From IMG/VR virus record IMGVR_UViG_3300044846_005772: DNA of 64,000 nucleotides, one strand, 5' to 3'. The position numbers and the translations under genes are program-made. Shown piece by piece: positions 1 through 63,094 of the stretch. The stretch is from a virus (taxonomy: Duplodnaviria; Heunggongvirae; Uroviricota; Caudoviricetes). The stretch's first letter is position 1. Every line of letters begins with the position of its first letter. Below the pieces are notes generated by a model. It saw only the letters and a program-made list of their open reading frames with translations. It did not search any database and was not told the DNA's origin.

Positions 1-764
1 CTGGAACTGTTAAGATTGACGAGAAATACTCGGATTTCTATAAGATGCAGGAAAATGTAGGCCCACTTGTTATGGTACTTTCGGCAAAGCACCTTATAGA
101 TAATAAGTATTCACCAAATATTAAGATCAAAATGGTTTATCTCAAGTATGATGAATCGAATGAGTACTTAAAGAAATATTGGGCATTGAAAGAAGATTCT
201 ATTCAAATGTATAAGAATGCCAAGGATTACGGCAGAGACATGTTGAATATAGAGAAGAAATTCATATACGAAAGTCAAGAAAGACTATCATTCATCTCAA
301 ATCTAGTAAAGAAGTTGGGCAAAAATACCTTGATTCTTTTCTCTGATGTAAAAAACGGTTACGGTAAATCTATTCAAGAAGCGATCTTTGAATGGAATCC
401 CAGAACCTATTACATTGATGGAGAAGTTGAAACAAATGTTAGGGATGAATATAAAGATGATATGGAAAAGGAGAATGATGTTATAATAGTCGCATCATAT
501 GGAACTTTTGCGACAGGTATTGACTTAAAGAATGTCCATCACATCATATTTGCAGAATCCACAAAAGCTGAGATAACGATTAGACAGTCAATCGGCCGAG
601 GTATGCGTAAGTTAGCTGAAAAAAATAAGGTCATCATATGGGATTTAATAGATGACCTTAGAGGGTATTCAGTAAAGCACTCAAAGGTGCGAGAGAAAAT
701 TTACGTTGAACAAGAATTTGAGATCGCTAAAAACGTTATTGATTTAACGAAGCTTTCTGTATAG
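1..764 (+). CDS. SF2 helicase, C-terminal domain (5' end truncated by window edge)
   Basis: Frame is open from nt 3. Helicase motifs V and VI are present (IIVASYGTFATGIDL, QSIGRGMR). Confidence 0.6.
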   Translation, partial: GTVKIDEKYSDFYKMQENVGPLVMVLSAKHLIDNKYSPNIKIKMVYLKYDESNEYLKKYWALKEDSIQMYKNAKDYGRDMLNIEKKFIYESQERLSFISNLVKKLGKNTLILFSDVKNGYGKSIQEAIFEWNPRTYYIDGEVETNVRDEYKDDMEKENDVIIVASYGTFATGIDLKNVHHIIFAESTKAEITIRQSIGRGMRKLAEKNKVIIWDLIDDLRGYSVKHSKVREKIYVEQEFEIAKNVIDLTKLSV

Positions 765-905
765 CAATCATTGAATCATAATACATTCCAAATACTTCAT
801 CTTCATATTCAGAAGTTCTGAAGAACTTTGAAAGATCGATGCTGATTTCATGATATGAAGAGTCTATTGAGAATCTAGCAAGTACCTTGGTTTTACGGCT
901 GTCCA

Positions 906-1115
906 TTAGTAACCAGTATAGTCATTCCAAGGCTCATCATCAAATAGCATATCAAGTCTCTTCTTTCTAGCTTCTTCAGATTCGTCTCCTTCTTCAGTTT
1001 CAATTGAGCTCTCCTCATATCCAGGCCACTCATTTGTGTCGAAATCTGGATCAGAATAATTTCCTTCGTTTACTTTAACGAATTCTTTAAAACCTAATAG
1101 TTTTGGATCATTCAT
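906..1115 (-). CDS. hypothetical acidic protein (69 aa)
   Basis: ORF only; Asp/Glu-rich. Confidence 0.3.
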   Translation of the reverse strand: MNDPKLLGFKEFVKVNEGNYSDPDFDTNEWPGYEESSIETEEGDESEEARKKRLDMLFDDEPWNDYTGY

Positions 1116-1312
1116 GTTAATGAATTATTTTTATTTTTTAGCAAGTACTCTAAGCATTCAACATGTTCCTGCATTTGCATTATGTTAAATCTTCGAATAG
1201 CTTTTTTTGGACCATGTAACATCATCTCCTTAATTACTTTAGCCAGTATATCATCTCCCCAAAGAGCAGCTGCTTCCAAAATAGTTGATACTTTGTTGCT
1301 AAATGATCCCAT
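1112..1312 (-). CDS. hypothetical protein (66 aa)
   Basis: ORF with 4-nt overlap to the downstream gene (operon-like). Confidence 0.3.
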   Translation of the reverse strand: MGSFSNKVSTILEAAALWGDDILAKVIKEMMLHGPKKAIRRFNIMQMQEHVECLEYLLKNKNNSLT

Positions 1313-1360
1313 TAGTTTTATTTATTTCTTATTCGCATATATTAACTTAATATGTGAGAA

Positions 1361-2026
1361 TCATCCTTTCCAGAAATATAAGAAGCTTTGGTGAAATCCT
1401 AAAACTACGTGATAGTTATTAAATCCTTTATCTAGAAAAAATTGAACGAATTTGGAGCGTTCAGTATCATCTCCTTCTTCATGAAATTCAATAAATATTT
1501 TCTGGATCTTATCCCAAGTAATTTGACTAACTTCTCTAAACACCTTTTTTTCATTTCCCTCAATATCACATTTCATGTAATCTATTCTTGTGATATTGTG
1601 CTTATCAAAAAATTCATCTAATGTTATGCACGGAATAGGCTGATGCTCCCAATAATTAGGCCACTTTGATATATCGATGACTCCTCTGGTCGTGCCAATT
1701 GCAATATTATCTACAATCCAGTGATAGTTTTTATTTTTATTTAGTGCTTCAAATACACCAGGATCAGGCTCAACACAATATATTTTAGAGCATCCATTTG
1801 ATTCTGCTCGAATGGCTGACATTCCAATATTTGCACCTAAATCTAAATATATGTCTCCGGGTTTTATTCCAGGACCATATGCATTTAATTCATCATGTAT
1901 TAGATTACCATATGCCATTGCGCCTTCCCAACCATACCTATTCGATAAATCTTCAATGGATCCTGAAGTATCCCAAGTTGAAATATCTAATTGTTTATCG
2001 TCCTTTGTATAAAATTTAGTGCGCAT
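1361..2026 (-). CDS. FkbM-family SAM-dependent methyltransferase
   Basis: Glycine-rich SAM motif DLGANIGMSAI; length 221 aa fits FkbM. Confidence 0.6.
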   Translation of the reverse strand: MRTKFYTKDDKQLDISTWDTSGSIEDLSNRYGWEGAMAYGNLIHDELNAYGPGIKPGDIYLDLGANIGMSAIRAESNGCSKIYCVEPDPGVFEALNKNKNYHWIVDNIAIGTTRGVIDISKWPNYWEHQPIPCITLDEFFDKHNITRIDYMKCDIEGNEKKVFREVSQITWDKIQKIFIEFHEEGDDTERSKFVQFFLDKGFNNYHVVLGFHQSFLYFWKG

Positions 2027-2040
2027 AGTTTATTTAACTA

Positions 2041-2811
2041 TTATTTACTCCCATTTAGTTTTTCAGTTCTTTCAATTTCATCAAAGATGGTCTCTAATTT
2101 CTTGATTATCGGATGACGAACTATATCTTCCTTACCTAGTTCAACTATACCAATTTCTTCAATTCCAGAAAAATGTTCTATTAGTATTTCCAAAGCGCTC
2201 TTCTCTTTCTTATTTACTGACTTTTGCTTAATGTCTCCCAAGAAGATCATCTTGGCATTATTTCCGATACGAGTTATTAGCGTTCTTAAGTTATCCTTTG
2301 AGATCTGTTGAGCTTCATCAACGATAATTATAGCATCATCTAATGTTACTCCAAGAGCAAATTTAATAGGTAGAATTTCAATGATTCCATTTGCCTTAAG
2401 TTCCTCAGTAGCAACCTTGCCGATAACTTTATGAAAATTACTAATGAATGGATACATATACATTTCCATCTTCTCTTCTAATGTTCCCTTTAAAAAACCA
2501 ATTTCCTCATCCTTAGGCACATTTACAGACTTGATAAGAACTATCTTCTTGTATGTTAATGCTTCATCCTTTATGAATTTCAATGCTCTTGCGCAAGACA
2601 GATAAGTTTTACCTGTTCCTGGAGGACCTGTCACAATTGAAATAACTTTGTCTTGGATAGCATCAATAACGTCCTTTTGAGATTTTGATTTACACTTAAT
2701 ATCAATCTTTCCAGATAATATTTTAGCATTGCTTAATAACTCTCTATCCCTATCCCAACCTGCAATATTTTCACTCTCTTCCTTTCTAGTTCTTTTGATT
2801 CCTTTTGCCAT
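2041..2811 (-). CDS. phoH: PhoH-like ATPase
   Basis: Walker A TGPPGTGKTYL and PhoH-like C-terminal layout; common in phages. Confidence 0.8.
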   Translation of the reverse strand: MAKGIKRTRKEESENIAGWDRDRELLSNAKILSGKIDIKCKSKSQKDVIDAIQDKVISIVTGPPGTGKTYLSCARALKFIKDEALTYKKIVLIKSVNVPKDEEIGFLKGTLEEKMEMYMYPFISNFHKVIGKVATEELKANGIIEILPIKFALGVTLDDAIIIVDEAQQISKDNLRTLITRIGNNAKMIFLGDIKQKSVNKKEKSALEILIEHFSGIEEIGIVELGKEDIVRHPIIKKLETIFDEIERTEKLNGSK

Positions 2812-2814
2812 ACT

Positions 2815-3465
2815 TTAATATATTTTTGCAGCGATTACTATACCCAATAATATTCGCATGTGATTTAATAAAAAGTTGTAATATGAAGTTACGACTTTAA
2901 GTTCGTCTGCTGTAAAACGATTCTCATTTACTTTTGAGCTCAATGTTCTAACCAATGTTCTTGTTTTTGCAGGCATATCTAATCCATGCACCTCTAATAA
3001 ATCATCAAGAAGACTCACAAAAATTCCACTACCTACAAAATTAAATCCTATCTCTTCTACAAACTCCAAGTTTTGTTTTATAGATTCTATCTTCTGTTGT
3101 AAACTATTTGAAGATATTCCCTTTGTTAATGATTCATTTGTTGAGTTCAATTTTTCAACTTCTCCGGATATTTCTTGCAAATACAAAAGATCTTGTGTGT
3201 ATAAAGTAACCATTGCTTGCGTTTCGCCGTCGACAAAATAAAAATTAATCATTTCAGGAGATTCTAGTCCCTGTACTTGACTTAGAATTATTGGTGATAT
3301 TCCCATCTTTTCAGGATCAAACGAATCTTTCTCCAGCACTATTTCATAGTCATCAAATGGAAAGGCTTGCAAGAAAGGCACTAGCTCATATAGCTCAGCT
3401 GCACTCTCATAGTCGTATTCTTCTTCCATCTTGCCACCTTTATTTTTATTTATTTTGAAAATCAA
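2815..3465 (-). CDS. hypothetical protein (216 aa)
   Basis: Long ORF, compact spacing with phoH. Confidence 0.5.
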   Translation of the reverse strand: MIFKINKNKGGKMEEEYDYESAAELYELVPFLQAFPFDDYEIVLEKDSFDPEKMGISPIILSQVQGLESPEMINFYFVDGETQAMVTLYTQDLLYLQEISGEVEKLNSTNESLTKGISSNSLQQKIESIKQNLEFVEEIGFNFVGSGIFVSLLDDLLEVHGLDMPAKTRTLVRTLSSKVNENRFTADELKVVTSYYNFLLNHMRILLGIVIAAKIY

Positions 3466-3600
3466 CCGACCGTATTTAATACTCTAGTCAAGCCGTAATT
3501 CTTTATCTAGGTGAATAGAAATATGGATAAATAATACAATAAATTAGCCTGAAGGGCAGGTCTCCTAAAACTTTATTCAAGGGTCTGTGTATAAAAATAC

Positions 3601-5025
3601 ATGGAAGACATTCAAAAAACGATTAAAAAGCTAGACTTAAAGCAAAATGCTATCAAGATCTTAATTAATTCTATATACGGAGCTTTTGGAAACAAATGGT
3701 TCTATTTCTATAATCCAGACATAGCACAATCAATTACTCTACAGGGCCAAGATCTTATCAAATTCTCAATCAAAGCAGTAAACCACTATTTTGCGGAGAA
3801 ATGGCATCTTGACTCTGAACTTCATGAAAAATTAGGAATATCTGGTTATAAAATTAATAAGATTGAAGAAGAAGCTGCAATTTACACAGACACTGACTCA
3901 ATCTACGTGCAATTCGATCCTGCTTTAAAATCAATTGAAGGTTATAATCCAGACAATGAAGAAGCTCTTAAGTTATGTATTGCAATTGATGATCTTAGAC
4001 TCTCTAGTTACTTTGATGCGTGCTTTGAGAAATATGGAAAAGTATTCAACACCAAGAATCGTTTGAAATTTAAACTTGAAAATCTTTCAGAACGTGGACT
4101 ATGGTTGAAGAAAAAGAATTATGTTATCAAGGTTTCGTATGAACCTAACTCAAAGCTTGAAGTTATTCCTAAAGATAAACGATATTTGATTATCAAGGGA
4201 CTTGAACCAGTTAAGAGCTCATATCCTACTTGGGCACGCGAACATCTCAAAAAGATGACTGACTATTTGCTTGCTCTCGGTCGTAACTTAAATTTAGAGC
4301 AAGATCTTATTCCTAAACTTCGTTCTCTTAAGGATGAGTTCAATACTCTCCATATTGAAGATATTGCGTTCAACTTCAACATCAGAGTTTACAACAAGTA
4401 CGTAGGTAGCGAGGAGAAACTCGACCTTAAGAAAGGAATATCGATCTTTCCTAGAGCAGCTGCATACCACAATCACCTTCTAATTAAGAAAGGACTGGAT
4501 CAGAAATACTCAAAGATCAGAGAAAAAGATAAAATTAAGTTTTACTATTGCGCTCCAAATGAGCATGAATTTGATGTGTTTGCGTATGTTCCTCAAGTAT
4601 TTCCTGATGAGATTGCTCCACCGATCGATCGAGATCTGCAATTCTTCAATTTAATAGTTGAACCTTTGAACAGGCAGCTCGAAGCAATGGGTGTAAACTC
4701 ACTAACTCCCGACCTAACTCGTCAAGTGGATTTCGTAAAGACTAAAACTAAGAAAGAGATTAAGGAGTCTGACTTCTTCCCGTTATACGTTATTAATAGA
4801 GCAACCTTGGAAACCAGCGAAGTTCCGGAGAAATTTTGGAAAGTTATCGGAAATCCAGAAGCTAAGGTATCCGATGATGATTTTGGCGAGTACTTGGCAA
4901 CTATTACGAGATATGGACTAAATTCAACTATTGTTCCAAAGATAGATCTTGAAAAGTACAAGAAGAAACTTATCAAGAAGATGGAGGAACCAATAGTTGA
5001 GGAGGTTGAGGAAAATGAAGATTGA
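3601..5025 (+). CDS. family B DNA polymerase, C-terminal fragment (motif B, motif C, thumb)
   Basis: N-terminus is KILINSIYGAFG (motif B, Kx3NSxYG); IYTDTDSIYV is motif C. An in-frame TAA lies 2 codons upstream of the ATG. No exonuclease domain or motif A is present. Confidence 0.8.
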   Translation: MEDIQKTIKKLDLKQNAIKILINSIYGAFGNKWFYFYNPDIAQSITLQGQDLIKFSIKAVNHYFAEKWHLDSELHEKLGISGYKINKIEEEAAIYTDTDSIYVQFDPALKSIEGYNPDNEEALKLCIAIDDLRLSSYFDACFEKYGKVFNTKNRLKFKLENLSERGLWLKKKNYVIKVSYEPNSKLEVIPKDKRYLIIKGLEPVKSSYPTWAREHLKKMTDYLLALGRNLNLEQDLIPKLRSLKDEFNTLHIEDIAFNFNIRVYNKYVGSEEKLDLKKGISIFPRAAAYHNHLLIKKGLDQKYSKIREKDKIKFYYCAPNEHEFDVFAYVPQVFPDEIAPPIDRDLQFFNLIVEPLNRQLEAMGVNSLTPDLTRQVDFVKTKTKKEIKESDFFPLYVINRATLETSEVPEKFWKVIGNPEAKVSDDDFGEYLATITRYGLNSTIVPKIDLEKYKKKLIKKMEEPIVEEVEENED

Positions 5026-6166
5026 TTTTCAAATGATGACTGGTTCCAAGTATGAAATAAGCGAGTTTATTAAGGATGTTCTTAAAGTTAGATTTCCAAA
5101 ATCTCCTCTAAAGCAAGAGATAAACGATGAGGATCCTGATAAAATCAATTTCGCATGTCCATACTGTGGAGATTCTGAAAAGGATCAGAACAAGAAGAGA
5201 GGTAATCTCTACTTGACCACCAAAACCTACAAGTGTTTTAATGATGGTTGCATGAAATGGGTTCCATTAAAGACCTTCATTTCTAATTTTGCAAGTAAAT
5301 ATGCATTAAGTATCCCTGATCTCGAGCTTCAAAGAACTGTTGATACTTCAAAAACTAAAGAACGAGAACTAAACATCATAGAGTTTTTAGTAGATAGGCG
5401 AATCGGAGATTCATTATTAAGCATAGAACAAGTAGCTTCTCGATTTTCTCTAACGCCTTGTGCTGAAGCGGAAATTGATTCTCCGATATATGAATACATT
5501 ACTAACCGTAAGTTAAATCATCTACCCGCTTTTGAGAAAAGCTGTTACTTTGATTCTAGAGAAGACAAAATCTATCTTTTTAATTTAGATAATTCATCCG
5601 GTAAAATATTAGGATTTGCTATTCGTCGAATTAGTAATGATTGGAAGGGGCCAAGATACGATATCCGAAACTATTCGGAATTGCAGAAGAGCGGATTAGT
5701 TCGAAGTATTAGCGATGAGTTTTTAGAAAAAATAAATTCAGTAAACAATTTCTTTAATATTTTAAACGTTGACTTTTCAAAACCTATTATGATAACTGAA
5801 GGTCAAATCGACTCAATGTTTCTAAACAATAGCATAGCAACTACTGGAGTAACTAAGAGCAAGAAGATCTTGGGAACCATTGTTAGCAAGAAGAATGCAA
5901 GAATCTTATTTGATCGTGACTCTGCAGGTAAAGGTGAAATGATTGATCTAATAAAGCAAGGCTACAAAGTTTTTCTTTGGAATAAACTAACGTATGATCT
6001 TCGACTAAAACATATGGGAAAATCGAAAGAGATTGATCTTATTAAAGATATTAATGATCTATATCGTTTTTTATCAGAATATGATAGCTCGATGGATTAC
6101 CAAAAATTCAATGTAGTAATCGAACAGTATTTCTCAGAGACAGCCTTCGACCTTATCTTTATCTAA
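5015..6166 (+). CDS. DnaG-like DNA primase (zinc ribbon + TOPRIM)
   Basis: Zinc ribbon CPYCGDS...CFNDGC. TOPRIM motifs ITEGQIDSMF (Glu) and LFDRDSAGKG (DxD). Start chosen at the ATG that overlaps the polymerase stop. Confidence 0.7.
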   Translation: MKIDFQMMTGSKYEISEFIKDVLKVRFPKSPLKQEINDEDPDKINFACPYCGDSEKDQNKKRGNLYLTTKTYKCFNDGCMKWVPLKTFISNFASKYALSIPDLELQRTVDTSKTKERELNIIEFLVDRRIGDSLLSIEQVASRFSLTPCAEAEIDSPIYEYITNRKLNHLPAFEKSCYFDSREDKIYLFNLDNSSGKILGFAIRRISNDWKGPRYDIRNYSELQKSGLVRSISDEFLEKINSVNNFFNILNVDFSKPIMITEGQIDSMFLNNSIATTGVTKSKKILGTIVSKKNARILFDRDSAGKGEMIDLIKQGYKVFLWNKLTYDLRLKHMGKSKEIDLIKDINDLYRFLSEYDSSMDYQKFNVVIEQYFSETAFDLIFI

Positions 6167-6465: not shown

Positions 6466-6969
6466 ATGGCAAAGAAAGAAAGAGATATTCATGACTTTCT
6501 AAAACCCCAAAACGGCAGAGTTCGTCAGGGATACTTTGTGCCTAAAAATCCTCAAAAATACAAGGGTGATCCGACCAAAGTAATTTACAGATCTAGTTGG
6601 GAATTTAAGTTTTTAGATTATTGTGATCAAAACGAACTAGTTGTTGAATACGCATCTGAACCTACTGGGATCCCATACTGGAACCCTATTCTAAAAAAGG
6701 AAAGTACTTATTGGGTAGACTGCTATATGGCAACCAGGCAGCTCGATGGATCGATAAAGAAGTGGCTGATTGAGATCAAGCCAAACAAATATCTAAATCC
6801 TCCCGAGTCTCCGAAGAGACTTACTGAGAAACAGACATTAAACTATGTGCGTCATGCAAAAGCATATATCATCAATGATGCTAAATTCAAAGCAGCAAAG
6901 GTGTACGCTCGTAAGAATAACATGGAGTTCGGGATAATTACTGAAAACTTTCTGTTTAACAAGGCGTAA
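6466..6969 (+). CDS. hypothetical protein (167 aa)
   Basis: ORF in a co-directional block. Confidence 0.5.
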   Translation: MAKKERDIHDFLKPQNGRVRQGYFVPKNPQKYKGDPTKVIYRSSWEFKFLDYCDQNELVVEYASEPTGIPYWNPILKKESTYWVDCYMATRQLDGSIKKWLIEIKPNKYLNPPESPKRLTEKQTLNYVRHAKAYIINDAKFKAAKVYARKNNMEFGIITENFLFNKA

Positions 6970-9402: not shown

Positions 9403-9804
9403 TTGTATAATAGTTTCATGAAAAGACTTTACACTTCTCCAAAGTTAAAGATTATGGAAAGTTCTATTCACGGATGGGGAGTCTTTGCAACTGGCGATAT
9501 TGAAGCATATTGTCTTCTTGAAGAAGCACCGATTGCAAAAATAGCAGATTACTCTCCAAATACAGTAGGTAACCTCTTAGAAGATTATAGATTTTTATGG
9601 CCTACTCGAGAACCATATTCAGAATTAGTAGTCGGCTTTGGTTTTTCTTCGTTATACAACCATAGTGATTCTCCAAATGCTGCATGGTCTCACAACTTAG
9701 AAAATAGAACATTAATTTTTAGGTCAATTAGAAAGATTAGTGCTGGCGAAGAGATAACTGTTTCTTATGGAGACCAGTATGCTTACAGTTTTAAAAACCA
9801 CTAA
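9403..9804 (+). CDS. SET-domain protein (putative lysine methyltransferase)
   Basis: GWGVFATGDI, YNHSDSPNA and GEEITVSYG motifs of the SET domain. Confidence 0.7.
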   Translation: MYNSFMKRLYTSPKLKIMESSIHGWGVFATGDIEAYCLLEEAPIAKIADYSPNTVGNLLEDYRFLWPTREPYSELVVGFGFSSLYNHSDSPNAAWSHNLENRTLIFRSIRKISAGEEITVSYGDQYAYSFKNH

Positions 9805-23406: not shown

Positions 23407-23649
23407 TTAATAATCGTCTATTGAAGCTTTAACTTCAATCAGTTCGCCTTCGCCGTCTACGTAATCCATTCTCCATAAAGTAAGCTCATTATCTACTTTA
23501 GAGATCGCAGCCAAACCACAACCTTCACAAATGAATCCGGATTGCATGTAACCGTCATTTAAAGATTCAAATATCTCACGTATGTCAATGTCCGGTTTAA
23601 CGTCTTCGCCAAACATATGATTTGCGCATTTAGTACAAAAATCTGCCAT
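23407..23649 (-). CDS. small Cys-containing hypothetical protein
   Basis: CTKC...CEGC pairs. Confidence 0.4.
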   Translation of the reverse strand: MADFCTKCANHMFGEDVKPDIDIREIFESLNDGYMQSGFICEGCGLAAISKVDNELTLWRMDYVDGEGELIEVKASIDDY

Positions 23650-23724
23650 AGTAAAATTATACTCAATATTTGAAACATTTAAAAATAGTTATAACATTTT
23701 TTTGAAATTTAGTATAATTGATAC

Positions 23725-24294
23725 ATGAAAATAATCTTTTTGGATATTGACGGTGTGCTGAATTGCCAGGATGCGTATGCTGCCGGTGAATGCGAATATG
23801 TTGAATGGACTAATGGGGATCAACATCAAGCTTTTTGCTCATGGAGCAAAGAATGGTTGAATAAGCTGATTGCTGAAAGTGAGGCAAAGATCGTCATCAG
23901 CTCTACTTGGAGGCATTCAGGCATTGAATATATGAAAAAGGTTTGGGAACTTGAAGGTATGCCTGGCGAAATCATTGGACTTACCCCAAACTTTAGAGGA
24001 GACATCAATGGCTATACTGTACCTCGAGGATGTGAAATTGAGAAGTGGTTAAGAGACAATGGCTTTCATCATATTAATTGGAGCCGTGACGCGCAGAACG
24101 AAAACATTCAAAAATCTGGCATTGAAAACTATTTGATTATTGATGATGATAGTGATATGCTCTACAGCCAAAGACATAACTTTTTGCATGTGCTACCTTC
24201 ACCGAGAAACACTCGTGGATTTGACCGCGATCATTATGTAAAAGGCATGCAAATACTTAGTTGGACAGTAACAGAACAAACATACGGAATATGA
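23725..24294 (+). CDS. HAD-superfamily phosphatase / nucleotidase-like
   Basis: N-terminal IIFLDIDGVLN motif I. Confidence 0.55.
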   Translation: MKIIFLDIDGVLNCQDAYAAGECEYVEWTNGDQHQAFCSWSKEWLNKLIAESEAKIVISSTWRHSGIEYMKKVWELEGMPGEIIGLTPNFRGDINGYTVPRGCEIEKWLRDNGFHHINWSRDAQNENIQKSGIENYLIIDDDSDMLYSQRHNFLHVLPSPRNTRGFDRDHYVKGMQILSWTVTEQTYGI

Positions 24295-26528: not shown

Positions 26529-27227
26529 ATGAGAATTGCTGTTTGTTTATCAGGTCATAGTCGGTACTTTAATGAAATAATGTTGCCCGAATTGGATGCT
26601 GATTACTTTATATCAACATATAAACAAGATGGATATCGACCAGTACATACGATAGACAACCCAATCGCTTATCATTTTTTTGATCATGTCGATACAACGT
26701 CTGCGAATATTAATGATATATTGAATAAGTATAATCCTAAATCAATTATAATATCAGACGACACCTGCATAGAAAATATAAAGAATAAATTTGGCGATGC
26801 TTTGACTTATTCTGGTGTTATTATTAGAAATGTTGCATCAATGTTTTATAAAATAAAACAAGCGAATGATCTAAAAAAGCAATATGAAATTGACAATAAT
26901 TTCAAATATGATTTTGTTTTTAGATACAGATTCGATACTAAATTAGACAGCATTACTTTTAATAGATTAGACACGTCAATGTACATAAAAAATAAAGGAG
27001 AATCTTCTTTTTATGATATGATGTATGGTGGAAACAGTTATGTCATGGATATTGCATCGAACTGCTTCGACTGGATGATGCAGGAATCTATTGAAAATCT
27101 AGCAAAGTTGAAAGATGCTGAGCATATTTTATTTCAATACTTAAAAAAATCGTTACCGCATATTACACTTAATGATAATTTCAAATATACTTTCTATAGT
27201 TTAAGAGACGGGACATATACAATATGA
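26529..27227 (+). CDS. putative glycan-biosynthesis protein, paralog 2
   Basis: Shares MRIAVCLSGHSR...YNPK...FRYRFD blocks with paralog 1. Confidence 0.5.
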   Translation: MRIAVCLSGHSRYFNEIMLPELDADYFISTYKQDGYRPVHTIDNPIAYHFFDHVDTTSANINDILNKYNPKSIIISDDTCIENIKNKFGDALTYSGVIIRNVASMFYKIKQANDLKKQYEIDNNFKYDFVFRYRFDTKLDSITFNRLDTSMYIKNKGESSFYDMMYGGNSYVMDIASNCFDWMMQESIENLAKLKDAEHILFQYLKKSLPHITLNDNFKYTFYSLRDGTYTI

Positions 27228-28597
27228 AAAAAATTAAACTAATTATCTTTGATTTAGACGGTGTTCTAATTGATGCAAAGAATATACATTTTGATTCATT
27301 AAATCTAGCTCTAGGCGAATACGCTATTGACTGGGATGAACACTTATCAATTTATGATGGATTAAAAACTAGTCAAAAATTAGAAATGTTACATGATCGT
27401 AAAGGACTGCCTAGGGAAAATTTCAAGCGTATTTGGGAAGAAAAACAAAAATACACGTTAGCTTCTCTAAGTAAAGTAGGAGAATCTGATCGCCTTCGAG
27501 AGTGTATGTTCTCTCTTGCTAGTGATGGTTATAAAATAGCAGTCTGTTCAAACAGTATACGAAAAACCGTTTTAACTGTTTTATCTAAATTAGGTATAAT
27601 TGAATACATGGATTTGATTATATCTAATGAAGATGTTAAAAATTCAAAACCTCATCCTGAAATGTACTGGAAAGCTATTTCAATGATGAGTTGTTTACCT
27701 GAGGAGACACTAATAGTTGAGGATTCGCCGTATGGACTATTAGCAGCATCTAGGGCTAAAGCTAATATTCTAAGAGTCACGCATCCGAATGAAGTAACGT
27801 ATGATAGTTTACGTAAAAAAATAAATGAAATAAGCACAGGAAGTATTATGATAACACCTAAATGGAAAGATGAAAAACTAAATATACTCGTTCCGATGGC
27901 TGGTGCAGGAAGTAGATTCGAGCAAGCTGGTTATACTTTTCCAAAACCTCTTATCGACGTAAATGGGAAGCCTATGATACAAGTAGTAATTGAGAATTTG
28001 AATATTGACGCAAATTACATATTCGTTGTTCAAAAAGAGCACAGAGAAAAATATAATTTAGATACTATGCTATCTTTAATTGCGCCGGGCTGCAAAATTG
28101 TCGAAACTGACCGACTAACACAAGGAGCCGCATGTACAGCGCTTTTAGCTAAAGAACACATTGATAATGACTCACCATTATTCTTTGCAAATTCAGATCA
28201 ATTTGTTGAATGGGACTCAAATGAGTTTATGTATAAAATGAATGAAACTAATGCAGACGGAGGAATAGTTACTTTTAAAGCGGCTCATCCAAAATGGTCC
28301 TTTGCTAAAATAGATTTAGAGACAGGCTGCGTAACTGAAGTTGCTGAAAAAAATCCAATATCGGACGACGCAACAGTCGGCTATTACTACTGGAAAATAG
28401 GTTCAGATTTTGTTAAGTATGCGGAACGTATGATAGAAAAAAACATTAGAGTAAATAATGAGTTCTATGTATGTCCAGTCTTCAATCAAGCTATTGAAGA
28501 TAATAAAAAAATACGCACGTTTACTGCAGACAAAATGTGGGGCTTAGGAACGCCTGAAGATTTAAAATATTATATTGAAAATTATGGGAAAAACTAA
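27224..28597 (+). CDS. bifunctional HAD phosphatase/phosphomutase-like + sugar-phosphate nucleotidyltransferase
   Basis: N-terminal IIFDLDGVLIDA (HAD motif I). Second half LVPMAGAGSRFEQAGYTFPKPLIDVNGKPMIQ is an NTP-transferase glycine-rich loop. Confidence 0.7.
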   Translation: MKKIKLIIFDLDGVLIDAKNIHFDSLNLALGEYAIDWDEHLSIYDGLKTSQKLEMLHDRKGLPRENFKRIWEEKQKYTLASLSKVGESDRLRECMFSLASDGYKIAVCSNSIRKTVLTVLSKLGIIEYMDLIISNEDVKNSKPHPEMYWKAISMMSCLPEETLIVEDSPYGLLAASRAKANILRVTHPNEVTYDSLRKKINEISTGSIMITPKWKDEKLNILVPMAGAGSRFEQAGYTFPKPLIDVNGKPMIQVVIENLNIDANYIFVVQKEHREKYNLDTMLSLIAPGCKIVETDRLTQGAACTALLAKEHIDNDSPLFFANSDQFVEWDSNEFMYKMNETNADGGIVTFKAAHPKWSFAKIDLETGCVTEVAEKNPISDDATVGYYYWKIGSDFVKYAERMIEKNIRVNNEFYVCPVFNQAIEDNKKIRTFTADKMWGLGTPEDLKYYIENYGKN

Positions 28598-33109: not shown

Positions 33110-34630
33110 ATGAATCCTCTACTATTAACAGACGGCTACAAGACTGGCCATCACCAACAGTATCCTAAAGGCACGACTTTAGTGTATTCTAACTTCACAC
33201 CACGTTCAAACAAGTACGCTCCTAAGGGATGTGATGCAGTTGTAGTATTCGGACCTCAAATGGTTATGATGCAATTGGACGAAATGTTTCAAAGAGACTT
33301 TTTTGATCGACCTAAGGATCTGGTTTGCGGAGAAATGAAAAGAGAACTTTCAGCATATCTAGGTACAGATTATGATGTTAGCCACTTTGAGGCGTTGCAT
33401 GATTTAGGCTATCTTCCAATTGCAGTTAAAGCATTGCCGGAAGGTACTAAGGCACCAATTAAGGTTCCAGTGTTGACTATTTACAACACACATCCTGACT
33501 TCTATTGGATCACAAATTATCTTGAAACAATTCTTTCCAACTTGCTGTGGAAACCAATGACGTCAGCTACTATCGCCCATCAGTACAGAAAGGTATTGAC
33601 ATGTTGGATGGAAAAGACAGATAAAGAAAGAGCATGGTTTGTGGATTGGCAAGGGCATGACTTTTCAATGCGAGGCATGGACTCAGTCGAGGCAGTCGTT
33701 AGTTCAGGCTTAGGTCACCTAACTTCCTTTCTAGGTTCCGATTCTCTACCAGCTATTCATGGTGCTAGAAAGTTCTATGGAGCTAGCGAGTTTGTTGCAG
33801 GTTCAGTTCCAGCTACAGAGCATTCGGTGATGTGCGCAGGCGGTAAGGAAGACGAGGTTGAAACGTTCCGCAGATTGTTAGAGACATATCCGAAAGGAAT
33901 CCTTTCAGTAGTATCTGATACATGGGATCTTTGGAAAGTTTGTACCGAACATGTGGTTACTTTGAAAGAAGAAATTATGGCTCGTGATGGTAAGTTAGTT
34001 ATTCGCCCTGACTCAGGTGACCCAGTAGATATTTTATGTGGTTCTATTCGTTTTGATAATAAAGAAGAATACGAAACGGAAAAAGCTGATGGAACATTAA
34101 GTAAAGCAAATCCATCTGAAAAAGGAGTTATCGAATTACTTTGGGATGTATTTGGAGGAACAGTAAACGAACAAGGATACAAAGTTCTTGACTCACATAT
34201 TGGAGCTATTTACGGTGACTCAATCACAATTGACAGAGCAGATGAGATTTGCAGACGTTTAGAAGCAAAAGGATTCGCATCAACAAACGTAGTGTTAGGT
34301 ATCGGTTCATTCACTTACCAATACAATACTCGTGATACATTTGGGTTTGCAATGAAAGCCACTTACGTAGAAGTTAAACACCAAGTAGAATCAGGAATCC
34401 CAGTGTTTGCAATTGAAGGTCGTGAGATTTTTAAAGACCCGATCACTGATGATGGAACAAAGAAATCAGCAACTGGTCTGTTGTGTGTTGAGGAGTTAGA
34501 TGGTGAAATTAAGTTATACGATAAAGTATCTTGGAATACAGAAGACACTGGCGTACTTCAACTTATCTATAAAGACGGCCAGCAATATAACGTTACATCA
34601 TTAGAAGATATCCGAAAAAAATTAAGATAA
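33110..34630 (+). CDS. nadV: nicotinamide phosphoribosyltransferase (NAMPT/NadV) family protein; could equally be a NARP1 Namat
   Basis: 506 aa, NAMPT-like throughout; adjacent to a PRPP-synthetase homolog. Confidence 0.75.
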   Translation: MNPLLLTDGYKTGHHQQYPKGTTLVYSNFTPRSNKYAPKGCDAVVVFGPQMVMMQLDEMFQRDFFDRPKDLVCGEMKRELSAYLGTDYDVSHFEALHDLGYLPIAVKALPEGTKAPIKVPVLTIYNTHPDFYWITNYLETILSNLLWKPMTSATIAHQYRKVLTCWMEKTDKERAWFVDWQGHDFSMRGMDSVEAVVSSGLGHLTSFLGSDSLPAIHGARKFYGASEFVAGSVPATEHSVMCAGGKEDEVETFRRLLETYPKGILSVVSDTWDLWKVCTEHVVTLKEEIMARDGKLVIRPDSGDPVDILCGSIRFDNKEEYETEKADGTLSKANPSEKGVIELLWDVFGGTVNEQGYKVLDSHIGAIYGDSITIDRADEICRRLEAKGFASTNVVLGIGSFTYQYNTRDTFGFAMKATYVEVKHQVESGIPVFAIEGREIFKDPITDDGTKKSATGLLCVEELDGEIKLYDKVSWNTEDTGVLQLIYKDGQQYNVTSLEDIRKKLR

Positions 34631-43990: not shown

Positions 43991-44065
43991 TGGTAGGTCC
44001 ACCAGGAATCGAACCTGGAATAGAAGCTTAGAAGGCTACTGTTATATCCATTTAACTATGGACCC
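43991..44065 (-). tRNA. tRNA-Arg (anticodon TCT)
   Basis: Acceptor GGGTCCA/TGGACCT, T-arm CCAGG-TTCGATT-CCTGG, anticodon loop CTTCTAA, encoded CCA. One mismatch in the anticodon stem. Confidence 0.55.
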
Positions 44066-44073
44066 AAATAAGC

Positions 44074-44123
44074 AAAGGTCAGCTTCTCTATCCGTGTGGT
44101 ATTTCACGAGCTGACCTTTTAGT
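44074..44123. terminator. long-loop hairpin, possible terminator
   Basis: aaaggtcagc ... gctgaccttt inverted repeat. Confidence 0.4.
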
Positions 44124-44133
44124 TTAAATTATT

Positions 44134-44877
44134 TTAGGAAATTTTACCTAAAGTAAATTCTCCATTCTCGTAAACGAGATACTGTTTTTCCTCAAGAGCG
44201 TCTATGAAGTAATAGCGATTGCCTGTTGACTTTCCTTCTATGTCGATCTTACGTACACCGGTGTGTCCGGCTATTTGGATATGCTTCTCCTTTAGGAAGG
44301 TGTCCCGGTTCCCACTCATCAAGCTCGCAGGACGTATCCAGATGGGGGTTTGAGTTTTTGAATCTCCATAAGGATCCCAACCATTAAAGGTAAATTTAGC
44401 AGGCCTGTATTTCCAAAGGTCGTTCACGAAATCGGAGATGCTCTGCTCACCAGTCTCATCATACCCATTTTGAGTTACCAACCACGAATGACCGATTCCT
44501 GCATGCGAACAGATGATGTCGTCCAACTGATAGCACATTTGTAAATGGTGAGAGTTTTCCTCAAGCAACTGTCGTATTACTGGCGCAGCACCGTGCTGAT
44601 AACCCGAATAGGTCTCTCCGCCTGGATAGTAATGGTAATCGTGATTACCTATGAGCATGATAACTTGGGTCTTGCGTTGAGTGTCCGTACCTTCATCAGT
44701 AAATGAAGTCTCCTTGTACTCAATGATCTCCTTGAAATTATGTAGCTGTTCGGTCGTGCCTATGTCAAAGCTGTCAAAGTAGTCGCCGACGAAGACCACA
44801 TGATCCGCATTTTCCTTCTCCACAATCTCCTTCCAAATAGATCTGCCGTGGATATCGCCTATGAATATTGTTTTCAT
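44134..44877 (-). CDS. PPP-family Ser/Thr phosphatase / ApaH-like metallophosphoesterase
   Basis: GDIHGR, GDYFDSFDIG and GNHDYH motifs. Confidence 0.7.
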   Translation of the reverse strand: MKTIFIGDIHGRSIWKEIVEKENADHVVFVGDYFDSFDIGTTEQLHNFKEIIEYKETSFTDEGTDTQRKTQVIMLIGNHDYHYYPGGETYSGYQHGAAPVIRQLLEENSHHLQMCYQLDDIICSHAGIGHSWLVTQNGYDETGEQSISDFVNDLWKYRPAKFTFNGWDPYGDSKTQTPIWIRPASLMSGNRDTFLKEKHIQIAGHTGVRKIDIEGKSTGNRYYFIDALEEKQYLVYENGEFTLGKIS

Positions 44878-45104
44878 CTAGATTGATTATTTTTTATCCT
44901 AGCCCTCAGACCTTCCCAGTAACCCGACTCATGTCGGTACCTATGTACCGGCCCAAGTTCATCCGGAAAAGCGGTGAGCATGCGCGAGGAGTTTTGAGTG
45001 TCCGCTAACATGAAAGTGTTTACCAAGCTTGTGTGGAAGCTACCGGCCGTGCCGATGCTCCAATAGTAGAGTTCCCACTCCCATCTGTTTATTTCCTTAT
45101 CCAT
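44874..45104 (-). CDS. hypothetical protein
   Basis: ORF overlapping the upstream stop. Confidence 0.35.
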   Translation of the reverse strand: MDKEINRWEWELYYWSIGTAGSFHTSLVNTFMLADTQNSSRMLTAFPDELGPVHRYRHESGYWEGLRARIKNNQSR

Positions 45105-45303
45105 CGATTAATGCTGTTAAAAATACTCCAACATAGAACACAAAGAAGGCTGGGATCCAAGTAACTAAAAGTGCCAACATCTGAATGGCGTCATACTTTT
45201 GGAATGCAAAATAGATCGGAGACACAAAGATGCAGATGGCAGCTATCGAAAAGATCGAGATCGTGATCAGGGCCAGAACTCCTCTTAATTTTCTAGTTTT
45301 CAT
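45097..45303 (-). CDS. small membrane protein
   Basis: Two TM-like segments. Confidence 0.35.
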   Translation of the reverse strand: MKTRKLRGVLALITISIFSIAAICIFVSPIYFAFQKYDAIQMLALLVTWIPAFFVFYVGVFLTALIDG

Positions 45304-45344
45304 ATCAGTTTTATTTTTTCTATTATACTAAGATCCTTGGGAAT

Positions 45345-45629
45345 TTACTCCAGGATCTGGACTTTATTTTGGGTCTCAATCCAAACCTTAGCACCACAAC
45401 TTAGCGGTTTATCCGGAGAGTAGATTATCCTGCAGGCTTCCTTGCCATTCTCATCATACACTATTGCCTGGTGACCGTACTCATTTGACTTATATGTTTT
45501 ACAAGTAAGCACGGGTCGATTCTCCTCGTCCTTGGAGTTCGCCTTGATATTATGCTGATTAACGTGGATTATCGTTTTCATCGGGTGCATGATTAAAGTA
45601 TTGCGGCGTCCATTCGCTGTCCGGTTCAA
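45345..45629 (-). CDS. hypothetical protein
   Basis: ORF; overlaps the next ORF in another frame. Confidence 0.3.
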   Translation of the reverse strand: MNRTANGRRNTLIMHPMKTIIHVNQHNIKANSKDEENRPVLTCKTYKSNEYGHQAIVYDENGKEACRIIYSPDKPLSCGAKVWIETQNKVQILE

Positions 45630-45921
45630 GATCGCTGCCGATTGATGTTACGTGAGACCTGACGTCTCGACCGTTTTGGTTCAGGAGACGAATGTTATGC
45701 TTGATGGCGGCAAACGGCCTCCCTCCAACATGCACCAACTCAAATTCCACATTGGGTTCGGCTAGTATCCTGGCATCAAGGTTATCGAAGATCCTGTCGA
45801 GTTCAGCCAGGTCTGCCCTTTCCTGAGGATGTAGGTCCACGCAGAATGTGGATCCACTATCATCGACGTACGAGATCTCCCAACCTCTGCTCGGATGTTT
45901 TTGCATGGTGCCCTGCATCAA
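45559..45921 (-). CDS. hypothetical protein
   Basis: ORF. Confidence 0.35.
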   Translation of the reverse strand: MMQGTMQKHPSRGWEISYVDDSGSTFCVDLHPQERADLAELDRIFDNLDARILAEPNVEFELVHVGGRPFAAIKHNIRLLNQNGRDVRSHVTSIGSDLEPDSEWTPQYFNHAPDENDNPR

Positions 45922-46118
45922 ATATCCGTTTTGTTTCTAAAAATAAATTCCTTATGGTCTTCGTCCTTCATCGATGCTCCCTGCAGCCACTCATAAAATT
46001 CGTCAGCCGCCCGTAATACAGTTTTCGTACCCCCATGTATTCCCATAGTTCTCTTCGTCTCTTCCATGGCCATCTGCAGGGCCACTTGACGATTTGTGTA
46101 AAACTTAATGTTACTCAT
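45918..46118 (-). CDS. hypothetical protein
   Basis: ORF. Confidence 0.35.
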   Translation of the reverse strand: MSNIKFYTNRQVALQMAMEETKRTMGIHGGTKTVLRAADEFYEWLQGASMKDEDHKEFIFRNKTDI

Positions 46119-46404
46119 GTTGCTTTCTTTTTATATTATACTCCAGTATTTGAGAAGGATTTTACTACGGAGTAAATCAAAAAATTGTGCTCAAGATTGG
46201 ACTTGCACCAATACGTTCCTTCGAACTCGTTACCTTAGCGTCTACTATCGGGTACTACATGATTACCTCGCTTCCGCCACTTGAGCATATGTAAAACACA
46301 CTCTCAAGCATTCTACTTCCCGCCCCTACACAAATGCGTAGCACGAAATTGTATCTTACTTAGCCCGTCGCTCGCGGTATGGGTACTTGAGTTTATGTGT
46401 TTCG

Positions 46405-46482
46405 TACCCCCTGAGAGACTCGAACTCTCACCCGAAGACTAGATCCTAAGTCTAGCGCGTCTACCGATTCCGCCAAAGGGGC
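46405..46482 (-). tRNA. tRNA-Leu-like (anticodon TAG), class II D-arm
   Basis: GCGGAATCGGTAGACGC D-arm, anticodon arm CTAGA-CTTAGGA-TCTAG, T-arm GAGAG-TTCGAGT-CTCTC, acceptor GCCCCTT/AGGGGGT. The variable region is only ~9 nt. Confidence 0.45.
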
Positions 46483-46692
46483 ATGATGGAAAACTTGGCT
46501 ACCATACGCGTCGATATGGTCAAGAATTGATTGATGGTTGGTTCCCCATCACCTGATGCCGTGCACAGCAGAGCAGGATCTCCTACATAACAACCCGGGG
46601 CATGATTACTCTCCGTTAAGGTTGCGATCCTCTGAGAGCCGGGTTCTCTTTCAACGGTGCTAATCCGTCCTATGTTAGCTGTTTTCCATTTG

Positions 46693-46829
46693 TAGTCAGG
46701 ACAGGAATCGAACCTGCATAAGTGTTACTGTGCTTCGCACTCCATTTGGTTATTATCAGGCTTTGTGTGAGGTCGCATCTCGTGCTAAACTGTTTTACCC
46801 AAATGACGTTACCATTCCGCCACCTGACT
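46693..46829 (-). tRNA. tRNA-like element 1 (class II ends, 137 nt, aberrant core)
   Basis: 5' AGTCAGGTGGCGGAATGGTAACG and 3' CAGGTTCGATTCCTGTCCTGACTA; no canonical anticodon arm is foldable by eye. Confidence 0.3.
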
Positions 46830-46983
46830 ATTTGTTTACTTTATCATTCCAATTACAATGGCTACAATTTCTAACCATGCAATTATTCCAAAAAATATGT
46901 ATGGTAATCTAAAATCATCCCATGTAGGTTTTTTAAATAACAAAAGAACTTTTAATGCTTCAATCATAACATTGTTGTTTTAG

Positions 46984-47085
46984 TAGTCAGGACAGGATTC
47001 GAACCTGTATGAGATGGTCAAAGCTTTCGCTGCATCTTACGTGGAACTTTGCGGGATCCTGCGTCTACCATTCCGCCACCTGACT
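46984..47085 (-). tRNA. tRNA-like element 2 (102 nt)
   Basis: Same ends (GCGGAATGGTAGACGC D-arm, ACAGG-TTCGAAT-CCTGT T-arm). Candidate anticodon arm GGATC-CCGCAAA-GTTCC has a mismatch and C33. Confidence 0.3.
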
Positions 47086-47161
47086 ATGTTGTTTAGTGGG
47101 ACTCATACCACCATGCTTCATTGCCTTGTATCATGTTTTTTGTTTAAGTTAATTTGTTTAG

Positions 47162-47273
47162 TAGTCAGGACAGGATTCGAACCTGTAAATCTCCAAAATA
47201 AAACTATCTCGAGTTCATTTTATTTCTTAAGGAGTCCATTAGATGGAGCGTCTACCAGTTCCGCCACCTGACT
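47162..47273 (-). tRNA. tRNA-like element 3 (112 nt)
   Basis: Same ends; the core contains a TCCAT-CTA-ATGGA hairpin instead of an anticodon arm. Confidence 0.3.
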
Positions 47274-47279
47274 ATTGTT

Positions 47280-47552
47280 TTACTTACTTACGTAATCCAT
47301 CATCTCACGCATCTTAAGAATCAGCAATTCCATCTCATCCTTATTGAGATACATCCTTGAACTTCCAGTCTTGTCGTCTAACTCCTTGGTTTCCACGATA
47401 ATTCCATTGAACCCCTCGGTTGGATATACATCAACGTTCTGCTCTTCAGTTGCGATTACGACTTTGTGCCAAACTTTATTTTTCATAGCTCTATTTTTAT
47501 TAGTAGTCAGGACAGGATTCGAACCTGTAACCGTAGCAGAGACGGTGCACAT
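47280..47552 (-). CDS. hypothetical protein between tRNA-like elements
   Basis: ORF. Confidence 0.4.
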   Translation of the reverse strand: MCTVSATVTGSNPVLTTNKNRAMKNKVWHKVVIATEEQNVDVYPTEGFNGIIVETKELDDKTGSSRMYLNKDEMELLILKMREMMDYVSK

Positions 47553-47590
47553 CGGGAGGAAACAGCGTCTACCAATTCCGCCACCTGACT
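47504..47590 (-). tRNA. tRNA-like element 4 (87 nt, class II length; anticodon loop CTCCCGA)
   Basis: Segment lengths fit a class II tRNA exactly (GCGGAATTGGTAGACGC; variable arm ACCGT-CTCTGCT-ACGGT; discriminator A). The anticodon stem GTTTC/TGTGC pairs poorly. Confidence 0.4.
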
Positions 47591-61303: not shown

Positions 61304-61528
61304 TTATCTTTCAAGTATCACGAACGATCCAAATTCTCGATCAAACACCTTGATCAGGTTCTCGTAATCGGATGACATCATCTCGGCATTGATTTCTCCT
61401 CTCTTCTTTGGATCCCAGCCAAGTTGCTTGCCAAAGTCGTTTGCCATGCCGAGTAGCACGAACGCGTTTCCGTCGGGCCCAGTCAGGTCAATCACGATCT
61501 GCTTGTTCTCTTGCTTTTTTCTAATCAT
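61304..61528 (-). CDS. hypothetical protein (74 aa)
   Basis: ORF. Confidence 0.4.
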   Translation of the reverse strand: MIRKKQENKQIVIDLTGPDGNAFVLLGMANDFGKQLGWDPKKRGEINAEMMSSDYENLIKVFDREFGSFVILER

Positions 61529-61683
61529 ATCGCGTGCATGTTAGAGATTATTACTTCTGCCTCCTCAAGGCTTTTTACAGGGATGAGTTGGCCCGCACCC
61601 ACAACGTAATGTCCGTCCCATATGGTAAGGGTTCGTGGAGGCCCGCTTGTGTCGATGGTGATCCCATCAGAAAATCTTAGCAT
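61525..61683 (-). CDS. small hypothetical protein (52 aa; start corrected to MLRFSDG)
   Basis: The track extension translates the module. Confidence 0.35.
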   Translation of the reverse strand: MLRFSDGITIDTSGPPRTLTIWDGHYVVGAGQLIPVKSLEEAEVIISNMHAI

Positions 61684-61843
61684 AGTTATGTTGTTTAGAA
61701 TTATAGAGTAAATATAAACTGAAATAATTAAAAAGTACAACGTTTTTGAAATTAAATTTCGTGTACGGTCGTTCCAAGACAAGCTTGCCGGGAGACGCCG
61801 TGCAGGAGTACTCACCCTAAAAAAGGGACCAAAGTCCCTTTTT
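61684..61843 (-). promoter_or_regulatory. module copy 10 (variant A) + degenerate hairpin + GGGACC-AAA-GTCCC terminator
   Basis: Read directly. Confidence 0.65.
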
Positions 61844-61846
61844 CAA

Positions 61847-62269
61847 TTAGTCAATAGTTAGCATGAATGCGGTGCCGTCCCAATCGTCCGGTATTTCTAT
61901 CTCATCAAGCTCCTTCACAAACTTCTCTGCTGTCTTAATAAGTTGTTCACGGGTATTAACCTTAGATATATTAAAGAAAATTATCTTGTCATTGACTGAT
62001 GAATACAACTCAAGATCGGGACCAGTGTCTGCATCTCCATCTACCGTACGTGATACTTTACTTCCCTGTTCCGCGTCATTTGCGAACTTTAGGATTCTTT
62101 CTGCGACTCCACGCAACTTTGATAATGAATCGATTTCGCCAAGATCAATCTTCTTTGTGGATTTGCCTGCCGTAATCTCAAGATAGTCATGAGATATTTC
62201 ATTAACAAACTCATTTCCTCTGTGTCCTTCATTAATAAATTCTGAAAAATTCTTAATTTCCATTGTCAT
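61847..62269 (-). CDS. hypothetical protein with N-terminal KNFSEFINE motif
   Basis: ORF. Confidence 0.5.
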   Translation of the reverse strand: MTMEIKNFSEFINEGHRGNEFVNEISHDYLEITAGKSTKKIDLGEIDSLSKLRGVAERILKFANDAEQGSKVSRTVDGDADTGPDLELYSSVNDKIIFFNISKVNTREQLIKTAEKFVKELDEIEIPDDWDGTAFMLTID

Positions 62270-62353
62270 AGTTATTTGTTTTAGTTATAGAGTAAATATA
62301 AACTGAAATAATTAAAAAGTACAATGTTTCCGAAACTAAATTTCCTGTACCGC

Positions 62354-63025: not shown

Positions 63026-63094
63026 AATTATTATTATACTAAATGGCCCTCCTAAATTTCAGAAGGGCCAATGTGATCACTACGGAGTGGACTC

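Follow-up and report, generated by a model that had tools for sequence, protein, structure and literature searches.

Background

Family-B DNA polymerases (PolB) of the T4 type are the product of gene 43 (gp43), which is not in all phages a single polypeptide. In the T4-related Aeromonas and Acinetobacter phages 25, 31, 44RR, 65 and 133 it is divided into gp43A and gp43B (Petrov et al. 2006, 2010, as cited in PMC3061061 and PMC2988022), and the 43A and 43B proteins of phage 25, the only pair for which this is known, are reported to co-purify and to be active (PMC2988022, citing Petrov 2010). Outside the phages, PolB of Methanothermobacter thermautotrophicus is encoded by two genes 85 kb apart (Kelman et al. 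1999, as cited in PMC3061061). Pfu polymerase engineered with a split near the fingertip keeps full activity, and an engineered split at this site broadened its substrate use (PMC3061061). Here we analyse a 64,000-nucleotide stretch of a Caudoviricetes virus (IMG/VR record IMGVR_UViG_3300044846_005772; the whole stretch is called "the window" below), in which an open reading frame (ORF) of 474 amino acids (aa) very probably encodes the C-terminal subunit of a two-subunit polymerase of the T4/RB69 type, with the gene for its partner elsewhere in the genome. We refer to the two parts as C-half and N-half.

Splitting of gp43 at the fingertip is thus established. The same holds for the presence of two polymerase coding sequences in Sphingomonas phage PAU (gp105 and gp110), where, as in Chryseobacterium phage MA9V-2 (_192 and _196), both halves are annotated as separate polymerase genes; one C-half homolog is likewise labelled "DNA polymerase subunit B" at NCBI. 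We found no description of a long-range, unlinked split, or of its breadth, in a comparative review of jumbo phages, in the megaphage papers or in a freshwater phage paper that is presumably where the named NCBI records come from, nor of the split in Lak megaphages and the LR7565xx huge phages in the literature. The jumbo-phage review assigns these phages a classic family-B polymerase.

The C-terminal half of the polymerase

The ORF and its landmarks are as follows.

3601..5025, plus strand: gene for the putative C-terminal subunit of a split T4-type family-B DNA polymerase (43B-like), 474 aa (Pfam, tblastn, PHROG, phmmer, Foldseek)
3655..3681, plus strand: motif B, KILINSIYG, residues K19-G27, equivalent to RB69 K560-G568 (K19/N23/Y26 = K560/N564/Y567); phmmer alignment, invariant among the aligned homologs
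3883..3900, plus strand: motif C, YTDTDS, residues Y95-S100, with D97/D99 equivalent to the catalytic aspartates D621/D623 of RB69 (alignment)
4108..4122, plus strand: KKRY-like motif KKKNY, residues 170-174, equivalent to RB69 K705-Y708, which binds the primer terminus (alignment)
4753..5022, plus strand: lineage-specific C-terminal extension of about 90 aa, residues ~385-474, predicted to form a small alpha/beta domain (alignment; AlphaFold, predicted local distance difference test (pLDDT) ~80-87)

Several independent comparisons place this protein in the back half of a T4-type polymerase, as the preliminary description of the sequence had proposed from motifs B and C. The Pfam profile DNA_pol_B covers no more than residues 9-106, with its positions 148-237 of 453. 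When the 831-aa gp43 of Synechococcus phage S-SM2 is used as a tblastn query, only its residues 482-819 cover the C-half, and in a phmmer search of the PDB sequences the alignment with RB69 gp43 runs from residue 555 on. Among the PHROG families the ORF belongs with phrog_1918, a family of stand-alone C-halves with 382 positions, and matches phrog_262 at positions 500-840 of 856. Foldseek with an AlphaFold model returned RB69 or T4 polymerase as all of the top 50 PDB matches (probability 1.0, ~380 aligned columns), so that the palm and thumb fold of T4/RB69 gp43 is recovered, albeit with a model of moderate quality. Sequence identity to the T4-type polymerases is only ~20-30%. The ORF accordingly comprises the second finger helix (helix P, with motif B), the part of the palm that carries motif C, the KKRY-like motif, the thumb and the C-terminal extension.

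The gene had been described as beginning precisely at motif B. This has to be corrected: the protein opens with MEDIQKTIKKLDLKQNAIKILINSIYG, and the first residue of motif B is residue 19. Since K19 aligns with K560 of RB69, residue 1 corresponds to about RB69 residue 542, where the second finger helix begins. The stop codon noted two codons ahead of the start is present, an in-frame TAA at 3592-3594 being followed by AAA TAC and then ATG.

The C-terminal extension is absent from the C-halves of sister lineages (382-425 aa) and from unsplit gp43. In the alignment W413, Y431, G439 and L440 are invariant. The extension ends in an acidic tail, is conserved and has no family match.

Conservation of the split form

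The protein database holds 410 homologs of the C-half. The best 120 of these are 56-99% identical to it and ~460-500 aa long, apart from one truncated entry of 423 aa and four that carry an intein, and the catalytic and deoxynucleoside triphosphate (dNTP)-binding residues are invariant throughout this range of identity. Eleven of the 14 N-termini inspected start with M-E-D and the others are close variants. In 59 IMG/VR loci the alignment with gp43 begins at about residue 482-493 wherever the gene start lies on the contig. A search for near-identical DNA in the phage collection found none.

The C-half gene is itself a target of insertions in some relatives. It carries an intein (PF14890) in P0091, P0092, P0099 and P0108, giving proteins of 636-653 aa, and is invaded by mobile elements in L044 (10303-10865) and in L045 and L047 (~8.3-9.9 kb). 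In two related loci an insertion of ~1.6 kb splits the C-half gene once more, after about residue 100.

Neither the exonuclease motifs I-III nor motif A (DxxSLYPS) is found on the C-half ORF or anywhere in the window, which bears out their reported absence. A tblastn search of the window with S-SM2 gp43 gave no N-half match at E <= 10; the sole other match was to its C-terminal residues 800-831 (E = 0.49). Six N-half queries from the same clade returned only noise (E > 0.3) over all 64 kb. A window-identical JGI contig (L001, sample 3300043774) reaches 5 kb further to the left, and with this extension included no N-half was found within 8.6 kb upstream or over more than 59 kb downstream of the C-half. 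The same is observed in the relatives: no N-half lies within 10 kb of the C-half in any of the 59 IMG/VR loci, and a leftward walk with a conserved neighbour as bait (L012:149-1708) reached ~20 kb without meeting an N-half in this lineage.

A complementary N-terminal half

The partner family was found when DNA was scanned with a degenerate pattern for Exo II in its clade-specific form, GWNxxx[FY]DWx[YF], and the contigs were then matched.

L436:1088-2512: stand-alone N-half, 474 aa (Pfam exo1 and DNA_pol_B, profile positions 18-136)

Its span on the DNA_pol_B profile (18-136) exactly complements that of the C-half (148-237). The protein carries Exo I-III (DIE, NxxxFD, YxxxD) and motif A in the form DFSSMYPN, and its C-terminus reads ...LYNERISTQGEIKKLKNK, directly before the stop codon. 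Across the N-half family, which comprises 462 homologs, the tails finish with ...LYDERIKTQGEIKKLKN and a stop codon about 12 residues past the equivalent of RB69 R482; nearly all of the 120 homologs listed are ~456-481 aa long, a few truncated entries aside.

The contig in question (L436 = 3300043774_001340, 29.6 kb) has no DNA in common with the window. It comes from the same JGI sample, 3300043774, as the window-identical contig L001, and the two halves have diverged in parallel. For the pair from sample 3300002835 the figures are 68% in the C-half and 72% in the N-half, and for a pair on one contig they are 57% and 58.7%. From the shared sample and this parallel divergence in sequence we infer that L436 belongs to the phage of the window. 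The N-half gene lies in a row of genes on one strand, and its start overlaps a preceding small ORF. A dUTPase gene stands upstream; downstream follow uvsX, the gp41 DnaB-type helicase, gp47 and gp46 (Mre11/Rad50-like) and thymidylate synthase.

Stand-alone N-halves are common in general. Among the best 150 matches of a profile search that covered 1.84 billion cluster representatives were ~125 stand-alone N-halves and only 18 fused proteins of 838-980 aa, though this search did not single out the partner, and N-halves of 458-468 aa without a C-half within 10 kb are abundant. Other candidates for the partner were rejected: the L153-type N-half (~468 aa, followed by nrdB-nrdA) shares no contig with the C-half family, the L151 type is a singleton and the L152 type shows no overlap with the C-half family. 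Ten candidate N-half clusters from the profile search had no contig matching the C-half clusters, and the N-half candidates could not be told apart by mirror-tree correlation over 25 anchor pairs.

Distances between the halves

In three relatives within the lineage a single contig carries the two halves, both in the same orientation, with the N-half upstream and 46-64 kb between them. In ENA ERZ27263765 k141_697333 (250,411 bp) the N-half lies at 96,764-98,185 and the C-half at 144,569-146,002, both on the plus strand and separated by 46.4 kb. In ENA ERZ27280231 k141_1071994 (130,950 bp) the positions are 120,644-119,220 and 55,505-54,081, with a gap of 63.7 kb. In IMG/VR 3300010883_000010 (87.6 kb) the N-half (L411) starts at 9,213 and the C-half (L307), which is 57% identical to that of the window, occupies 61,492-62,871, leaving a gap of ~51 kb. 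The C-half of the window starts 3.6 kb from the left edge, and we conclude that the partner lies outside the window because the relatives have it 46-64 kb upstream. The suggestion that the polymerase is encoded in at least two pieces, with its N-terminal half far away, is borne out by these relatives and by the partner family.

Both shorter and longer distances occur elsewhere in the clade. The lineages of L132, L148-150 and L160 have the halves ~3-4.7 kb apart on one strand, in the order 43A - nrdB - nrdA - two small genes - 43B - uvsX - gp41, and in IMG/VR 3300027770_000025 they are ~16 kb apart. In complete megaphage genomes the halves are on opposite strands, ~101 kb (LR745206), ~132 kb (LR756502), ~221 kb (Lak-A2) and ~281 kb (LR756504) apart. 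Every genome or long contig examined that has a C-half also has an exactly complementary N-half. The clade therefore presents a graded series from fused genes through halves 2-5 kb, ~16 kb and 46-64 kb apart to halves dispersed over 100-280 kb on opposite strands.

Comparison with described split polymerases

The break falls between the finger helices N and P, as the C-half sets in at about RB69 residue 542 and the N-half stops ~12 residues past the equivalent of R482. This position matches the known fingertip split site of gp43A/gp43B in T4-related phages. The parallel drawn earlier with T4-like Aeromonas phages is a good one, since they share the break point. The likeness extends to membership of the T4/RB69 gp43 family, to two independently translated ORFs without an intein and to a short fingertip like that of Petrov's "group II". 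The phages with gp43A/gp43B differ in that their halves lie 2 bp-3 kb apart in one locus, whereas here 46-64 kb separate them and the two genes sit in separate modules with unlike upstream contexts; the C-half of the window lineage also has the extra C-terminal domain of ~90 aa.

PAU and MA9V-2 belong to the same clade of stand-alone halves (N-halves 487-495 aa, C-halves 404-425 aa). They are, however, distant relatives: their N-halves are ~28-29% identical to the L153-type N-half, and the PAU C-half scores 94 bits against the window C-half, compared with 241 bits for the C-half of L132. Their halves are on one strand and close together, 2.4 kb apart in PAU with dUTPase among the genes between, and 3.5 kb apart in MA9V-2 with a TnpB gene between. 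This gene (L305, 11651-12817) encodes a TnpB-family RNA-guided endonuclease and is a candidate agent of insertion or rearrangement. Lak megaphages and the LR7565xx huge phages, which are the closest complete genomes for the portal and the polymerase halves, share the unlinked state of the halves but differ in their spacing of 100-280 kb on opposite strands and in genome sizes of 460-735 kb.

The comparison with archaeal PolB, which had likewise been drawn, holds for the distance between the genes and fails for the break point. M. thermautotrophicus also makes a family-B polymerase from two distant genes, but as a member of an unrelated, archaeal lineage it has its break in the palm, ~83 residues more C-terminal, while here the break is in the fingertip. 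Split Pfu resembles the phage enzyme in its near-fingertip split and in fragments that restore full activity; it differs in being artificial and bicistronic and in being split inside the first finger helix.

Proposed enzyme and alternative explanations

We interpret these observations as a real, conserved two-subunit PolB that is a long-range form of a known kind. An ancestral gene 43 would have been interrupted at the fingertip, within the loop that connects the antiparallel pair of finger helices. The N-subunit (~474 aa) would then provide the N-terminal domain, the 3'-5' exonuclease, palm motif A and the first finger helix from a gene in a recombination and replication module (dUTPase - 43A - ... 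- uvsX - gp41 - gp47 - gp46), and the C-subunit, the ORF of the window, the second finger helix, the motif C palm, the KKRY-like motif, the thumb and the added C-terminal domain. Packing of the antiparallel finger helices and completion of the palm would probably hold the subunits together non-covalently as an active, proofreading replicase. We infer such assembly of two polypeptides by analogy, because the site is that of the natural 43A/43B split, the phage 25 subunits are active and split Pfu is active.

Four points weigh against this interpretation. No contig from the window's own phage carries both halves, and L436 is linked to it by the shared sample and the parallel divergence. At the place of RB69 K486 the N-half of this lineage carries Gln, or else a Lys that is displaced. 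The AlphaFold model of the C-half is only moderate (pLDDT 71.5), with low confidence at residues 1-47, the orphan finger helix, and at residues 150-203, a part of the palm. Finally, assembly and activity of the subunits are, for this lineage, a matter of deduction.

A further-reaching version of the two-subunit enzyme, in which unlinking has made the replicase a true heterodimer with separately regulated subunits and the ~90-aa C-terminal domain serves as a docking or control module, is rather unlikely in our view. The expression contexts of the two genes differ, the N-half being inside a same-strand gene row and the C-half behind a 135-bp divergent intergenic region. The subunit with exonuclease and motif A is grouped with the recombination genes and the subunit with motif B, motif C and thumb with the primase and a promoter-like box; if this version were true, the separation could allow staged assembly, a stand-alone exonuclease or altered nucleotide selectivity as in engineered split Pfu.

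Of the explanations that do without a two-subunit replicase, the least improbable is that the ORF represents a polymerase fragment in decay or put to another use, acting alone or as a non-catalytic accessory. The unlinked partner and the deduced nature of the assembly would agree with such a fate. The invariance of the catalytic and dNTP-binding residues among homologs of 56-99% identity, the constant size of a family of hundreds and the complementary N-half in all the C-half-bearing genomes and long contigs all speak against it, and no second replicative polymerase turned up in the window or in the loci surrounding the two halves, whole genomes not having been scanned. We regard this explanation as highly unlikely.

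Joining of the halves after expression into a full-length polymerase, by a split intein (protein trans-splicing) or by RNA trans-splicing, is less credible still. Split-intein "fractured genes" are known from marine phage metagenomes (PMC2677866), and the inteins of 636-653-aa relatives (PF14890) and the L044 insertion demonstrate that such elements do reach the C-half gene. Pfam, however, recognises an intein domain in neither half. With just 18 residues ahead of motif B and ~12 beyond the first finger helix, the two ends offer no space for Int-N or Int-C. The residues at the junction belong to charged helices and include no Cys, Ser or Thr nucleophiles, and the arrangement of a fractured gene as defined by Dassa et al. 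(2009), with Int-N and Int-C at the junctions and a homing endonuclease between, was not found. Rfam detects no intron RNA in the window, including none of group I, while the upstream DNA codes for genes on the opposite strand, and in the megaphages the halves themselves are on opposite strands. Instead, the halves are distinct ORFs that both have a start and a stop codon of their own, and the initial judgement that neither intron nor intein is involved stands.

A frameshift or misjoin near 3590 that cut a full-length gene, named at the outset as the finding that would overturn the split, has a negligible chance of being correct: the window may be stitched or heterogeneous rightward, where G+C shifts after ~42-44 kb, but the artefact is excluded because ORF size and, in nearly all homologs listed, the M-E-D start (in hundreds of independent assemblies), identical gene boundaries, the divergent upstream gene, the start codon and local gene order are conserved across independent JGI, ENA, Logan and IMG/VR assemblies.

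The preferred reading of a two-subunit PolB implies that a replicative polymerase can persist over the long term as two unlinked genes across a large and abundant clade from freshwater and gut, including the Lak megaphages. Annotation searches that assume one PolB gene will under-call or mis-call such genomes, and phylogenies with PolB as a marker will mix half-length with full-length sequences. The graded series offers natural material for research on the fragmentation and dispersal of essential genes, and for enzyme engineering many natural fingertip-split pairs are on offer.

Gene neighbourhood and start signal

The C-half gene is flanked by the following features.

45..764, plus strand: UvsW-type helicase, C-terminal part, cut by the window start (Pfam, context)
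2041..2811, minus strand: PhoH-like ATPase, a lineage-conserved neighbour (Pfam, context)
2815..3465, minus strand: hypothetical protein, ~205-216 aa, divergent from the C-half gene (no Pfam or PHROG match)
3466..3600, no strand: divergent intergenic region, 135 bp, with the in-frame TAA (3592-3594) and a GTATAA box (3589-3594) (sequence and related loci)
5015..6166, plus strand: primase, gp61-like, with zinc finger and Toprim; overlaps the end of the polymerase gene (phrog_47 DNA primase; conserved directly downstream)

The upstream plus-strand gene is a helicase, as stated in the preliminary description. That account also placed phoH, an FkbM methyltransferase and a hypothetical gene, all leftward, between helicase and polymerase; these are present, but the leftward ORFs number six rather than three, with three small ones followed by the FkbM methyltransferase, PhoH and the hypothetical protein of 216 aa. 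The latter stands directly upstream of the C-half, beside PhoH, in most relatives inspected, and a functional link with the polymerase subunit is possible. The local order PhoH (minus), hypothetical (minus), C-half (plus), primase (plus) is conserved in the lineage. For the primase, gene callers set the start at 5015, and the mechanical ORF begins with TTG at 4997. Further downstream a T4-type portal gene is found at 7651, and between primase and portal a protein whose N-terminal domain is of the TnsA-like endonuclease type (6466-6969, plus strand) is conserved across the lineage.

The GTATAA box ends 6 nt before the ATG of the C-half and is kept in ~10 of 14 related loci. Together with the divergent region it is probably the gene's own promoter or start signal. 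The window has 40 GTATAA sites; in front of 8 ORFs of 50 aa or more the box is followed after 4-10 nt by ATG, for example at 3589-3603, 9403-9420, 23710-23727, 27592-27610, 63025-63041 (minus) and 23649-23664 (minus). The box may be a promoter that gives very short leaders. Its occurrence at 63025 on the minus strand suggests that the window's right end, too, comes from this phage.

Other features of the window

Between ~42000 and 64000 G+C climbs from ~0.33-0.37 to 0.41-0.54. A subtilase gene lies in this part, with Pirin just upstream at 38-39 kb, and the protein at the right end (62354-63025) occurs only on contigs of less than 10 kb. The part from ~42 to 64 kb could cross a joint of assembly or binning or a horizontally acquired region.

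A cluster of transfer RNA (tRNA) genes occupies 43991-47590 on the minus strand, with Arg-tct, Leu-tag and Arg-ccg according to ARAGORN. Within it lies the Rfam "freshwater-1" small RNA motif (RF02979; 46526-46587, minus strand; 72.1 bits, at the gathering score). Two tRNA-like Rfam matches of unusual length, 137 nt at 46693-46829 and 102 nt at 46984-47085, could represent degenerate tRNAs or tRNAs with an intron. Auxiliary genes encode a nicotinamide/nicotinate phosphoribosyltransferase (33110-34630) and a HAD-nucleotidyltransferase fusion (27224-28597), and a SET-domain protein, the SET call being taken from a related contig, is located at 9403-9804.

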